From Anaerococcus sp. (GTDB taxonomy: Bacteria; Bacillota; Clostridia; Tissierellales; Peptoniphilaceae): a stretch of DNA of 64,000 nucleotides. The notes beneath the pieces are model-generated. The model ran no database searches. It saw only the letters and a list, made by a program, of their open reading frames with translations, and was not told where the DNA came from. Positions 22,615 to 27,645 of the stretch are shown piece by piece; position 1 is the stretch's first letter, and the number at the start of each line of letters is the position of its first letter. The DNA is taken from contig JAUNLG010000002.1 of assembly GCA_030532385.1 (NCBI GenBank), forward strand, positions 28,992 to 92,991, given 5' to 3'. Position numbers and translations under genes: made by a program.

Positions 22615-22694
22615 AATTATCACCTCACTCCTATTATATCAAATAAAACCTTACTAAAAGCATATTTATCCTATATAATATAAGAGAGGTGTAT

Positions 22695-24479
22695 ATGTAT
22701 AATAATATAAAAATTCTATCAGCAAATTCTAAGCTTAAACTTGCTGATCCTACTTATAACAAAGAAAAAATCAAAGAAATATTTAAAAAAGCTGATGAAG
22801 AAAAAATAGACTTGATTAGTTTGGGAGAATTATCCCTAACAGGGGCTAGTCTTTATGATTTGTATAGGGAAGATGTCCTTATAGGTGAAGTCTATAAGGC
22901 CATAGAAGACTTGCTTGATTTTTCTAAAAATCTAAGTCCTATCCTAGCCTTAACCAGCATTTTAAAAAAAGGAGCCAACCTATATAATGCCTGCTTGATA
23001 ATTTATAGGGGTGAGATTTTGGACATATTTGTAAAAGAAAATCTCAAAAAATATGAAAAAATGGTATTTTCTAATACAATTCCAGAATATTTTAGGATTA
23101 ATTCTAGGGATATTAAGGTTAACAATAATATTCCTCTTGAAATAAAGGATATAAAACTTGGAATATCCATAGGAGAAGATGAGAAATCTCCAATACCAAG
23201 GTCTCTAATTTTTAAGCAGGGGGGAGCCAATGTAATTTTAAATCCTCATGCCTATGAAAGATATATTCTTTCAGAAGAAAACCATAAAGAAGCCATTAGA
23301 TATTTATCAAAGGATATAATTTATATATCTACTCCACCAGGGGTTGATGAGTCATCCACAGACTTTGTCTACCAGACAAATAATATAATAGCAGATAATG
23401 GAAAAATAATCGATAAATCCAAAGACCCCTTAACAGGCATCTTTAGGATTAGGTCAAGCAAAGAAGATTGGTCAAAGACTTATAAAGACATAGAAAAATT
23501 TCCTTACCTACCTAAAGATAATTCACATATTGAGGAATATATAAAAGATGCCTTCGAAATAGCAGCAGAAGGTCTTATGACAAGGCTTAGAAAAATTCAT
23601 ATCAAGGATGTCTACCTAGGTCTTTCAGGTGGACTTGACTCAACTATGGCTCTTTTATTCATATACTATGGTTTTGAAAAATATGGCATAAGTAAAGATC
23701 ACATCCATCTTATAACCATGCCAGCCTTTGGAACAAGCAAAAGAACAAAGTCAAATGCCCACCTGCTGGCAGCTGCCTTGGGACTTTCTTTAAAGGAAAT
23801 TGATATATCAGAAGCGGTAAGGATCCACCTAAGGGACCTAGGTCATGATGGGAAAAGCCAGGATATAACCTATGAAAATGCCCAAGCTAGGGAAAGGACC
23901 CAGGTTCTATTTGACCTAGCCAATAAGGGGTCAGGTCTTGTTATTGGGACAGGAGACCTTTCTGAGGCCATGCAGGGCTTTGCAACCTATAATGGAGATC
24001 ATATGTCAAATTATGCCATAAATTCTTCCTTAACTAAGACCCATCTTAGGTATATTATAGGGAAAGTTTTAGAAAAAACTTCCAATAAAGACTTAAAAAT
24101 AGTCCTAGAAGATATCCTAGCTACCCCTATATCTCCAGAACTTAAGAATGAATCTAGTGATGGTATAAGTCAAAGGACTGAGGATATAATAGGTCCTTAT
24201 GAGCTAATAGACTTTTTTATCTACCAGCAACTTAAGAATAAATATAGTCCAAAAGAGATTTTTTATAGGGCAAAGATTGCCTTTGAAGATTCCTATGATG
24301 AAAAGACCATAGAAAAATGGCTTAGGTCTTATTATAAAAGATTTGTAGCAAGTCAATTTAAGAGGTCTGCTTCAGTAGATGGTGTATCTATAACTGGCCT
24401 ATCCTATTCACCTAGGACAGGCTATAAGATCCCTTCTGATCTAAGTAGTGAAATTTACCTAGGAGATATAAGTGAATAA
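22695..24479 (+). CDS. nadE: NAD+ synthetase, two-domain (Gln-dependent type) with degenerate glutaminase domain
   Basis: LGLSGGLDST, ENAQARER, GTGDLSE, ATYNGD, ISPEL, QRTEDIIGPYEL, SQFKRS; the nitrilase domain reads IGED instead of ICED. Confidence 0.9.
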   Translation: MYNNIKILSANSKLKLADPTYNKEKIKEIFKKADEEKIDLISLGELSLTGASLYDLYREDVLIGEVYKAIEDLLDFSKNLSPILALTSILKKGANLYNACLIIYRGEILDIFVKENLKKYEKMVFSNTIPEYFRINSRDIKVNNNIPLEIKDIKLGISIGEDEKSPIPRSLIFKQGGANVILNPHAYERYILSEENHKEAIRYLSKDIIYISTPPGVDESSTDFVYQTNNIIADNGKIIDKSKDPLTGIFRIRSSKEDWSKTYKDIEKFPYLPKDNSHIEEYIKDAFEIAAEGLMTRLRKIHIKDVYLGLSGGLDSTMALLFIYYGFEKYGISKDHIHLITMPAFGTSKRTKSNAHLLAAALGLSLKEIDISEAVRIHLRDLGHDGKSQDITYENAQARERTQVLFDLANKGSGLVIGTGDLSEAMQGFATYNGDHMSNYAINSSLTKTHLRYIIGKVLEKTSNKDLKIVLEDILATPISPELKNESSDGISQRTEDIIGPYELIDFFIYQQLKNKYSPKEIFYRAKIAFEDSYDEKTIEKWLRSYYKRFVASQFKRSASVDGVSITGLSYSPRTGYKIPSDLSSEIYLGDISE

Positions 24480-25269
24480 GAAAAGATTAGCCCTGGGCTT
24501 ATCAGCCATGACCCTGGCAGTTTATTTGGATAGGCAGGCCTTTAAAGCAAGGGAGAGCAGGGTAGTATTAAGGTCAAAAAAAGCACTTGAAGATATTAGG
24601 ATTAGCCAAATAAGTGACTTTCATTCAAATGTCATCGGCAATTTAGATGATCTTTTAGGAAAAATTAGAAGCTTTGATCCCCACTTTATAATACTTACAG
24701 GAGATATAATTGATTATGGAGAGGATAAAAAGATAGCCAGGTCCATGTACTTTCTTAAAAACCTAACAAGCCTTAGCAAACCTATCTTCTTTATTAGCGG
24801 CAACCATGAGGAAAGAGGGCCTAAGCTAGATGAATTTCTATCACAAATTAGGGCCTTAGGTATAAGGTATTTGGCAAATGAAAGTCTAAGATTTAAGCTT
24901 GGAAAGACAAAGATAAATCTTTTTGGGTCAAAATATTATGAAAGGACCTATAAGGACTATGCCTATGATCCAAAGGCTATAAATATTATCCTAAGCCACT
25001 CTTTTAAAAATATTAGAGATGACAAGATTTGTGATTTTGACTTTATTTTCTCAGGTCACACCCACGGAGGCCAGGTAAGACTTCCCTTCTTTGGTGGAAT
25101 TCTTGCTCCATCAGAAGGATTTTTGCCAAAATATGATAAGGGAATATTTTCTTATAAAAATGGTATAGTATATATTGATAGTGGACTTGGAAATACCTTT
25201 CTTCCTCTAAGGTTTTTAGACCAGATAGGTTATTCCAATATCACTATAAGTAATGGGTCTGTAGTTTAG
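24472..25269 (+). CDS. Metallophosphoesterase (YkuE-like)
   Basis: SDFH, TGDIID, SGNHE, LSH, SGHTHGGQ, SGLG. Confidence 0.9.
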   Translation: MNKKRLALGLSAMTLAVYLDRQAFKARESRVVLRSKKALEDIRISQISDFHSNVIGNLDDLLGKIRSFDPHFIILTGDIIDYGEDKKIARSMYFLKNLTSLSKPIFFISGNHEERGPKLDEFLSQIRALGIRYLANESLRFKLGKTKINLFGSKYYERTYKDYAYDPKAINIILSHSFKNIRDDKICDFDFIFSGHTHGGQVRLPFFGGILAPSEGFLPKYDKGIFSYKNGIVYIDSGLGNTFLPLRFLDQIGYSNITISNGSVV

Positions 25270-25328
25270 TGGCAAAATAAGGGTGTCCGAAGCCAAAGAT
25301 GGGGGTTCGATTCCCTCCAGGCCTGCCA
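25255..25328 (+). tRNA. tRNA with anticodon CCG on a Trp-like body (probable tRNA-Trp(CCG); software would call it Arg)
   Basis: Cloverleaf GGGTCTG-TA-GTTT AGTGGCA AAAT-A-AGGGT GTCCGAA GCCAA-AGAT-GGGGG TTCGATT CCCTC-CAGGCCT-G-CCA; 74 nt; encoded CCA end; anticodon at 25287-25289. Confidence 0.85.
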
Positions 25329-25342
25329 TTTATACTTATTAT

Positions 25343-25369
25343 AAAAGAGGGGCAGGGCTCCTTTTTTTT
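25343..25369 (+). terminator. Probable terminator after the tRNA
   Basis: Short GAGGGGC/GCTCCTT hairpin plus an 8-T tract. Confidence 0.55.
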
Positions 25370-25502
25370 ATGAGAATTTTAATTGATCTATATTAGGATA
25401 CTAGCACACAAAACAAATAATGCGACGATATATATTGCAAATTTTAAAGCTAAGAATATAATAATAATTATACAATTTTATTAAAAATTAAAAGGAGGTA
25501 AG

Positions 25503-26360
25503 ATGAAATTTGGACTAAGAGATAAGATCTGGATAACAGGATCTACTGGTAGACTAGGTTCTACCATCTATAGGTATCTTGATCCAATCGATGCAGAAAT
25601 TGTTGCTACTGACAAAAACGAGGTAGACATTACCAAGCAAAAAGAAGTTGCAACTTTTATAGAAAGGCTAAGACCAACTATAATTATAAATGCATCCGGT
25701 CTTTCAAAAAGAAATGAATGCGAAAAAAACCCTGACCAAGCATATTTATTAAATGCCATAGGGGCAAGAAATATAGCTATAGCAGGCAATAGGTTTAAGG
25801 CTAAGCTAATCCAGCTATCTACATCTGATGTCTTTGAGGGCAATACTCTTAGCCCCTATAAAGAGATAGATGAGGCTTTACCAAATACAGTTTACGGGAA
25901 AAGCAAGTATCTTGGAGAAGAATTTGTTAGAAATTTTTCAAATTATTATTTTATTATTAGGGTATCTAGGCTTTATTCAAGAGAAAATGCCTTTGTTGAA
26001 AGTCTTATAGACCAAGCTAAGACAGGCAAGGTTGTAATCCCAAAAGATAGGTTCTCATCGCCAACGCCAGCCTTTGAACTAAGTAAGTTCTTAATTGATT
26101 TAATGCAAACAAATAACTTTGGAACCTACCATGCTTCTTGCAATGGTGTTTGCTCACATAGGGAATTTGCTCAAGAACTTGTAGATTACCTAAAACTTGA
26201 CGCAAAAGTTATAGAAGAAGTAGATCCAAATAGGGTTGATTTTAGGCCTGCTTATAGGGGGATAGACAATTATTTTCTAAGGATTACAGGAGGCTATGAA
26301 TTTTTGGATTGGAAAAGTGCCCTTCATGAATACATAGATAAGGAGGGATTGAATGGATAA
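25503..26360 (+). CDS. RfbD/RmlD-like NAD(P)-dependent reductase (extended SDR)
   Basis: ITGSTGRLG, LSTSDVFEG, YGKSK, SSPT, GTYHAS. Confidence 0.8.
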   Translation: MKFGLRDKIWITGSTGRLGSTIYRYLDPIDAEIVATDKNEVDITKQKEVATFIERLRPTIIINASGLSKRNECEKNPDQAYLLNAIGARNIAIAGNRFKAKLIQLSTSDVFEGNTLSPYKEIDEALPNTVYGKSKYLGEEFVRNFSNYYFIIRVSRLYSRENAFVESLIDQAKTGKVVIPKDRFSSPTPAFELSKFLIDLMQTNNFGTYHASCNGVCSHREFAQELVDYLKLDAKVIEEVDPNRVDFRPAYRGIDNYFLRITGGYEFLDWKSALHEYIDKEGLNG

Positions 26361-27645
26361 GAAAGAAAAAAAACAAAGTAAGCAAAGATTTGGACTTTCC
26401 CAAAAAATATTTCTCTCCCTAATCCTTGGTATTGTAGCTGGAATTTTGATCCATTATTTTATGCCAGCAGGAGAATTTCGTGATGAAATCCTAGTAGAAG
26501 GAATTTTTTATACCATAGGTCAACTATTTATTAGACTTATGCAAATGCTTGTAGTTCCCTTGGTATTTTTCTCAATAGCTGAAGGATGTAGAAACCTTGG
26601 CGATACAGAAACCTTAGGTAAGGTTGGGTCTAGGATAGTAATATTCTATTTATTTACAACTGCCCTTGCTATAATAGTTGCCCTAGCCTTGGCAAGTATT
26701 ATAAACCCTGGCCAAGGGATGAATATCAATGTAGGAGAAAATTCTTTTGAAGTTGAAGGTAGTGGGGATATATCCCTATCAGAAACTATACTAAACTTCA
26801 TTCCAACTAACCCCATAGGGGCTCTAGCAAGTGGAGAGATGATTCAAATTATAGTGTTTTCTGTCCTAGTTGGTCTTTTGATAGCCTATATGGAAGATAG
26901 GATGACTACTTTGGGAAATATAGTAACAGAGATGAATGACCTCATGATGGGTATGACCATGTGGGTTATGAGGCTTGCTCCTATAGGAGTTTTTTTCCTA
27001 ATAGCAAGGACCTTTGCAACCCTAGGATATGATGTTATCCTATCAATGATTTCCTACATGCTAACAGTTCTAGGAGGACTCCTTGTTCAACTTCTCCTAG
27101 TTTATATGGTCCTTCTAGCAAGTTTTACAAGGGTAAATCCAATAAATTTTCTAAAGAAGTTCTTCCCTGTAATGACCTTTGCTTTTTCAACAGCATCATC
27201 ATCAGCTACAGTTCCTGTCAATATAAAAACCCTAGAAGAAATGGGAGTAGATAAAAAAATATCATCTTTTACCATTCCTCTTGGTGCTACAATAAATATG
27301 GATGGAACTGCAATAATGCAAGGCGTGGCAGTTGTTTTTATAGCAAATGTATATGGGATTGACCTTACAATGACAGACTTTATGACAGTAATCTTAACTG
27401 CAACTATCGCCTCAGTAGGTACAGCGGGAATACCTTCAGTAGGGCTAATAACCCTATCTATGGTCCTTCAATCAGTTGGACTTCCTGTAGAAGGTATAGC
27501 CATGATTATGGGAATAGATAGGATCCTTGATATGGCAAGGTCAGCTGTAAATATCAGTGGAGATGCCACAGGGACAATCATAGTTGCAAATTCATTAAAG
27601 GCCTTTGATGTAGAAAAATATATAAGAAGAGTAGAAAAAGCTTAA
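26353..27645 (+). CDS. Dicarboxylate/amino acid:cation symporter (DAACS)
   Basis: AFSTASSSATVP, PLGATINMDGT, DRILDMARSAVNISGD. Confidence 0.92.
   Translation: MDKKEKKQSKQRFGLSQKIFLSLILGIVAGILIHYFMPAGEFRDEILVEGIFYTIGQLFIRLMQMLVVPLVFFSIAEGCRNLGDTETLGKVGSRIVIFYLFTTALAIIVALALASIINPGQGMNINVGENSFEVEGSGDISLSETILNFIPTNPIGALASGEMIQIIVFSVLVGLLIAYMEDRMTTLGNIVTEMNDLMMGMTMWVMRLAPIGVFFLIARTFATLGYDVILSMISYMLTVLGGLLVQLLLVYMVLLASFTRVNPINFLKKFFPVMTFAFSTASSSATVPVNIKTLEEMGVDKKISSFTIPLGATINMDGTAIMQGVAVVFIANVYGIDLTMTDFMTVILTATIASVGTAGIPSVGLITLSMVLQSVGLPVEGIAMIMGIDRILDMARSAVNISGDATGTIIVANSLKAFDVEKYIRRVEKA

Follow-up and report, generated by a model that had tools for sequence, protein, structure and literature searches.

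In this Anaerococcus genome the codon CGG is very probably read as tryptophan by a tRNA with anticodon CCG that lacks the arginine determinant A20; both the expression of this tRNA and its charging with tryptophan are predictions from sequence. Its gene lies in a window of 64,000 nucleotides (contig JAUNLG010000002.1, positions 28,992 to 92,991). Since the arginine signature of the tRNA has been lost and most CGG codons of the genome fall at positions where relatives have Trp, CGG is very likely read as Trp. The reassignment is already published as a prediction, as the earlier note stated: the Codetta screen predicted CGG to encode Trp in Anaerococcus and described a tRNA(CCG) with tryptophan features in all species (Shulgina and Eddy 2021, eLife 10:e71402, PMC8629427). 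There, 36 Anaerococcus assemblies were called Trp in 3 cases, Arg in 2 and undetermined in 31; the text of that paper gives no supporting conserved positions for the genus and leaves the relation to Finegoldia open. Two later works (PMC13092985 and bioRxiv 10.64898/2026.05.03.722492) repeat the prediction, and no experiment is reported in their accessible parts. Our literature search, which left subscription journals largely outside, returned nothing beyond these three. What is new here is the support from individual sites, the extension to a sister genus, a probable origin from an arginine tRNA and a hypothesis on the synthetase. Few sense codons are known to be reassigned in bacteria, and although Anaerococcus can be cultured, it was the weakest case of the 2021 screen.

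ARAGORN called a single tRNA in the window, at positions 25255 to 25328 of the forward strand; it is 74 nucleotides long with an encoded CCA end, matches the Rfam family RF00005 with 48 bits (E 2.2e-09, gathering threshold 29) and is a predicted tryptophan acceptor. The cloverleaf described in the earlier note is confirmed in every feature: G1:U72, G2:C71, G3:C70, G73, the D-loop AGTGGCA, a 4-nucleotide variable loop and the anticodon loop GTCCGAA, with the anticodon C34 C35 G36 at 25287 to 25289 and U72 and G73 at 25324 to 25325. Acceptor pairs 4 and 5 are U4.G69 and C5:G68. The anticodon arm (25280 to 25296) has only three stem pairs, one of them U31.G39; A27.A43 and G28.A42 are unpaired and position 32 is a G, facing A38. 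Free-energy folding of the window tRNA gave no cloverleaf (z −0.34). ArgRS recognises its tRNAs mainly by A20, and C35, G36 and G73 lie within the arginine set (PMC9976931). The window tRNA retains C35, G36 (the set has U/G36) and G73 (A/G73), but A20 is indeed missing: position 20, in the 7-nucleotide D-loop, is C (25273), whereas 16 other CCG sequences of the family have A20-U20a.

These features are conserved in the genus. A search with the tRNA pattern gave 19 matching named records, 18 from Anaerococcus and one from Peptoniphilaceae; the DNA of the window tRNA has matches in 51 of the 54 other genus genomes, and the pattern occurs in all 40 genus genomes of at least 85% completeness. Throughout the 57 genus rows, which overlap between searches, A20 is absent, G1:U72, G73, G32.A38 and the anticodon are invariant, and positions 27 and 43 are never paired. 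Pair 2:71 varies by paired change (C:G in 25 rows, G:C in 22 and U:A in 10), G2:C71 being confined to one Anaerococcus subgroup (22/57). The anticodon stem has three pairs in the subgroup of the window tRNA and four in the rest of the genus.

The tRNA gene follows two genes on the same strand. The NAD(+) synthase gene (22689 to 24479; NF002730, 517 bits, cut-off 473) is the first of a conserved unit of nadE, phosphoesterase and tRNA, and the second is a metallophosphoesterase-like reading frame (24472 to 25269; weak YaeI/LpxG matches below cut-off) whose stop codon occupies tRNA nucleotides 13-15. The phosphoesterase gene lies directly 5' of tRNA(CCG) in 19/19 named loci, where nadE and the flanking genes are also common to all (the latter at 51-83%). 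Downstream, a hairpin followed by a T run (25343 to 25369, forward strand) is likely an intrinsic terminator (fold z −2.9, with 3 of 200 shuffled sequences folding at least as well); a consensus scan did not list it, and a promoter scan gave 3 sites against 3.1 expected. Of 59 genus rows, 56 have the end of the phosphoesterase frame within the tRNA (an overlap of 25255-25269 in the window), with its stop at tRNA nucleotide 13 in 47 rows, 8 in 7 and 24 in 2, and in genus g59 it likewise ends within the tRNA. Processing of the tRNA 5' end would remove the stop codon from a co-transcribed phosphoesterase mRNA.

We then looked at the use of CGG. The assembly (1.39 Mb, 82% complete) holds 1,229 ORFs of at least 100 aa, or about 413,000 codons, in which CGG occurs 39 times in frame (0.94 per 10,000), compared with 679 and 1,149 times off frame. 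In the window there is no in-frame CGG among 19,172 codons (51 ORFs of at least 100 aa; 56 off frame), as a scan by eye had indicated. Twenty of the 39 codons were dropped before testing: 15 in low-complexity ORFs, 4 that, as judged by eye and from presumed gene names, probably precede the real start codon, and 1 in an ORF of doubtful standing. The 15 are held by two near-identical ORFs (G000:C13:25770-26171 and C18:109626-109952) that are probably not genes on that strand.

Homologues were gathered for all 19 remaining in-gene sites. Eleven CGG codons lie in Trp columns, six in other non-Arg columns, one in a variable polar column and one, in a mobile element, in an Arg column. The column is TGG in 29/29 homologues of the branching enzyme, and Trp in 29/30 of the rhomboid protein, 19/19 of the DUF5808 protein, 13/14 of the ABC permease, 5/5 of the thioesterase, 4/5 of DHFR, and 4/4 each of the PP-loop protein and a membrane protein. 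For the GntR protein, all five orthologues have Trp and three paralogues have L, F and L; for a GT2 protein, 45 of 119 residues in the column are W and none is R; for the PRD/EIIA regulator, the closest homologue has CGG too and two distant ones have TGG. The six non-Arg sites face T/F, L, Y, V, Q/Y and S, three of these being judged on one homologue, and the flippase codon falls in a polar column of variable content (S 45, K 19, R 6, W 0 of 119). The Arg column belongs to RepA of an integrative element (G000:C20:724-1497, locus L067), with CGA in 2/2 homologues. The RepA of pAPRE01 (L238:6001-6774) has a CGG at another Arg position, and both RepA codons would read Trp. The idea that mobile DNA is rich in Arg-type CGG was dropped: no enrichment was seen (pAPRE01 part, 2 CGG in 14,360 codons), and an alignment of 7,716 codons with an Aerococcus element contained one CGG/CGA pair.

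In an automated comparison covering 164 genes, CGG stood in Trp-majority columns at 9/15 sites, whereas the other five Arg codons did so at 1 of 1,411 sites; CGG at Arg columns was found at 1/15 sites, compared with 839/1,411 for the other Arg codons. The enrichment of CGG at Trp has a Fisher p of 8e-19, for sites that are not independent of kinship. TGG faced Trp at 164/194 sites, more often than CGG did (p 0.03). Trp columns were not shared by other one-base neighbours of TGG (GGG 0/315, TCG 0/39, TGY 0/196, TTG 2/307), and in genera whose tRNA has A20, aligned CGG faced Trp at 0/33 sites. CGA faced Trp at 0/16 and Arg at 10/16 sites, a test in which low-level misreading would not show. Two other genomes also place CGG at Trp columns (L104, where 28 other rows have W, and L227). 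Within Pfam domains the outcome was mixed: replacing Arg by Trp raised the score at 6 of 10 CGG codons, left 1 flat and lowered 3, for a positive net change. The reading of CGG as Trp proposed from the window is thus supported by the 11 of 19 Trp columns and by the controls. Against it stand the 8/19 sites off Trp columns, the lower frequency with which CGG, compared with TGG, faces Trp, the three Pfam scores that fall, the g59 site that faces Arg, the two Arg calls of the Codetta screen, the three-pair anticodon stem and unsuccessful free-energy fold, the reading of A36 by bacterial TrpRS, and the absence of G4:C69 and G5:C68 from the tRNA.

In the mechanism we propose, the tRNA gene would be co-transcribed behind nadE and the phosphoesterase gene, loss of A20 would take the tRNA away from ArgRS, and G73, U72, C34 and C35 would allow its charging by TrpRS. 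CGU, CGC and CGA would remain Arg by means of tRNA-Arg(ACG), which is present in the genome together with a TadA-like ORF. No tRNA(UCG) was found among the 26 tRNAs called, an absence that is not proven because the genome is 82% complete.

Three other readings of the codon have to be weighed. CGG might be ambiguous or inefficient, read mostly as Trp with some Arg by a tRNA that keeps C35, G36 and G73 of the arginine set and has a weak anticodon stem. This would suit the 2/19 sites that fit Arg better, the two published Arg calls (PMC8629427) and the failure of CGG to rebound (39 of about 413,000 codons); but the main ArgRS determinant is absent in 57/57 rows, and there are CGG codons whose column is Trp in every homologue examined. 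Of the two Arg-like sites, one belongs to an integrative element and the other to a polysaccharide gene, contexts in which neutral changes or the code of a donor are to be expected. We consider such ambiguity quite improbable. It would also be conceivable that tRNA-Trp(CCA) misreads CGG as a near-cognate codon and that the CCG tRNA is a relic, as its three-pair anticodon stem, G32 and weak free-energy fold could suggest, part of it being perhaps conserved through the reading frame that overlaps its 5' end. A relic is hard to reconcile with a tRNA present in 40/40 well-assembled genus genomes, with paired changes at 2:71 next to an invariant anticodon, U72 and G73, and with an encoded CCA and a downstream hairpin, and we hold this explanation to be very unlikely. 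The chance that CGG has kept its Arg meaning, with TGG-to-CGG missense changes or assembly errors behind the Trp-column cases, appears very slight: the two codons differ by one transition and the CGG calls do rest on the assembly (no sequencing runs were listed for positions 22700-27600 of the window), but the remaining one-base neighbours of TGG do not gather at Trp columns, the pattern recurs in other genomes, in one at the same site, and CGG never faces Trp in the A20 genera (0/33). The reading of CGG as Trp by the CCG tRNA is the one that we retain.

The code likely predates the genus. In an RpoC tree of 61 genomes, g59 (G172) is the sister of Anaerococcus with support 1.0, and its tRNA, at the same locus, has no A20 but A1:U72 and G73. 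The 559 kb covered of about 1.8 Mb contain 13 CGG codons, of which 3 N-terminal ones were dropped; the 10 usable ones face Trp (5), Tyr/Phe (2), Leu (1), Val/Ile (1) and, in distant paralogues, Arg (1). Reading as Trp improves the model score at one of the five Trp sites, in the GH38 motif, by 9.1 bits and lowers it by 1.9 bits at the site facing Arg. Trp-type CGG codons together with the tRNA in the sister genus therefore point to a code that is likely older than the split. Under table-11 annotation, conserved Trp motifs of both Anaerococcus and its sister genus are given an Arg, and the 11 named sites are ready targets for proteomics.

As to its origin, the window tRNA probably descends from the tRNA-Arg(CCG) of the family through an identity switch that took place before the split from g59, as judged from sequence comparison. 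The tRNA-Trp body assigned to it in the earlier note is not supported as a statement of descent. When the anticodon and positions 1, 72, 73, 20 and 20a are left out, the window tRNA shares 58% identity with the genome's own tRNA-Trp and at most 65% with seven tRNA-Trp of the family, compared with 70-73% with three A20-bearing tRNA-Arg(CCG). Mean identities of the genus tRNA are 74% to g59, 71% to g38 and 68% to g2, the last two with A20, and 59% both to ten other Arg-CCG and to tRNA-Trp. C5:G68 is present in 30/30 distinct genus sequences and 14/16 Arg-CCG, whereas the 7/7 distinct family tRNA-Trp(CCA) have G4:C69, G5:C68 and a 5-nucleotide variable loop; the 4-nucleotide loop, once taken as Trp-like, is therefore not so in this family. 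In g2, an A20-bearing CCG gene with G1:U72, G73 and a 4-nucleotide loop follows a 33% phosphoesterase homologue and adjoins a His-Leu pair, the same pair that precedes tRNA-Arg(CCG) in g38, g39 and g46.

The same code could have arisen with a duplicate of tRNA-Trp(CCA) changed by A36G, possibly of one origin with that of Finegoldia. The window tRNA does resemble tRNA-Trp in its D-stem (U11, U12, A24) and its one-base 20 position, and the Finegoldia CCG gene adjoins tRNA-Trp in 6/6 cases. The trees proposed earlier as a check gave no stable answer: with 41 rows and 66 columns a grouping of Anaerococcus with tRNA-Trp was rejected (p 0.027), with 54 rows and 66 columns it was not (p 0.094), and in the wider tree the grouping of every Trp-like CCG gene with tRNA-Trp was not rejected either, its score exceeding that of the unconstrained tree by 2.7 log units. 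The tRNA trees thus do not settle the origin. Against duplication stand the nearest tRNAs outside Anaerococcus, which are CCG genes, three of them with A20, the distribution of C5:G68 and the g2 gene with its phosphoesterase neighbour, and we regard it as unlikely. A profile score of +20.6 bits (Arg-CCG minus Trp) was discarded as evidence of origin; it means only "not Trp-like" because Ile and Asn tRNAs score equally high. An arginine origin is thus the one we prefer for the Anaerococcus tRNA.

Finegoldia (g47) is different. Its tRNA(CCG) adjoins tRNA-Trp in all six loci where both were seen: in two (L077:7733-8099 and L078) the gene closes a tRNA cluster, 130-220 bases 3' of tRNA-Trp, and in four more (L414-L417) the two share a 1.2-kb stretch. 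This Trp-type tRNA(CCG), already noted in PMC8629427, resembles the Anaerococcus tRNA in that it has no A20, has U72 and G73 and goes with a TrpRS of the II type; unlike it, it stands in tandem with tRNA-Trp and has G2:C71, G4:C69, C32 and a five-pair stem. The two share 57% mean identity, and Finegoldia is not the sister of Anaerococcus in the RpoC tree. A placement of the Finegoldia tRNA inside tRNA-Trp, with 100/100 support in the first tree, was abandoned, since with more rows it fell outside on a long branch. CGG occurs 10 times in 45 kb of Finegoldia, always in spurious ORFs over RNA genes.

Two Helcococcus (g48) genomes have an Anaerococcus-like tRNA(CCG) (L073:8016-8089 and L074:8058-8131), the gene presumably lying between an ftsW-like gene and ftsZ. 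These genes nest among those of Anaerococcus in both trees but have G1:C72 and, in one, A20; horizontal transfer and a return to arginine are possible. In the Helcococcus genome G151, 12 of 14 CGG codons lie in one block, which looks to us like a conjugative transposon, and the other two lean towards Arg (−3.5 and −1.1 bits with Trp). In g2, 19 CGG codons were found; where homologues exist, they have K, V, R, D or G at the site and never Trp.

Tryptophan identity is defined by G73, the anticodon and pair 1:72, to which G4:C69 and G5:C68 are added in B. subtilis tRNA-Trp (PMC9976931). E. coli TrpRS reads A36 through Ser227 and Thr225 with three hydrogen bonds, and G73 through Glu155 (PMC12135181). 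Since TrpRS reads A36, the G36 of the window tRNA is an obstacle to its charging with Trp. We examined the TrpRS of 30 genomes: it scored 244-268 bits in 10 (six Anaerococcus, g59, two Finegoldia and g65) and 312-376 bits in the other 20. In 22 aligned enzymes, with the E. coli numbering mapped by motif, M[YF]TDP is found in 8 and [AS]VTDS in 14, and the Glu155 equivalent in all. A single TrpRS was found in this genome (G000:C2:18056-19138); it belongs to the TrpRS-II type and has Pro at both the Ser227 and Gln152 equivalents; the Anaerococcus enzyme is nearest to solved TrpRS II (388 bits, compared with at most 157 for the canonical type). The TrpRS of Finegoldia and g65 nest among those of Anaerococcus, while the species tree separates these taxa. 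The type is found in both lineages whose tRNA has U72 and no A20, and in none of the A20 genera examined. The Y-x-N motif of ArgRS, which we assume to form the A20 pocket, looks intact; our literature search found no paper naming the residues of that pocket.

From these sequences, a TrpRS of type II, with Pro in place of the A36-reading Ser227, could perhaps let G36 be tolerated, a proposal for which we have less than even confidence. It is offered as a hypothesis because there are two events only, because one Helcococcus genome combines a U20 tRNA with a canonical TrpRS, and because TrpRS II-like enzymes occur in bacteria with the standard code. Nothing is stated on the anticodon specificity of TrpRS II in the accessible text of PMC9437257. 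More speculatively, and rather doubtful as a whole, TrpRS-II may have spread sideways in Peptoniphilaceae and CGG may have become Trp twice by different routes: once in the common ancestor of Anaerococcus and g59, where a tRNA-Arg(CCG) would have been converted by losing A20, and once in Finegoldia, where tRNA-Trp would have been duplicated in tandem, while the Helcococcus copy, with an ordinary TrpRS, would have reverted towards arginine. If the synthetase link is true, it would explain why some low-GC lineages, unlike their neighbours, gave CGG to Trp, and it would supply a naturally occurring Trp-tRNA/TrpRS pair with tolerance for a CCG anticodon.

Set beside the Anaerococcus of PMC8629427, our case has the same genus, codon, amino acid and tRNA(CCG) with G73, no A20 and purine1:U72, as well as no tRNA(UCG) among the tRNAs called, CGG below 6 per 10,000 and low GC; it differs in its 11 supporting sites, of which that text has none, and neither the text nor the supplementary table was found to contain the sister genus, the origin of the tRNA or the TrpRS type. 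The AGG Arg-to-Met change of uncultivated Bacilli (PMC8629427) likewise involves a new tRNA apparently derived from an arginine tRNA, with changed synthetase recognition; there, however, AGG is the dominant Met codon, whereas CGG in Anaerococcus stands at about 1 per 10,000. The short anticodon stem is shared with the 4-bp-stem tRNAs of extended superwobble (PMC13092985), noted there in 7 Anaerococcus genomes; the window tRNA has three pairs, and there is no sign of the CGA misreading that would be predicted. Elsewhere in the genome, an ARAGORN call of tRNA-Pyl(CTA) without a CCA end (G000:C7:54268-54345) is probably false, and a tRNA-Leu with anticodon AAG (G000:C12:16605-16695) carries A34 and lies outside the arginine box; among Leu codons, CTT is the most frequent in the Anaerococcus genome.
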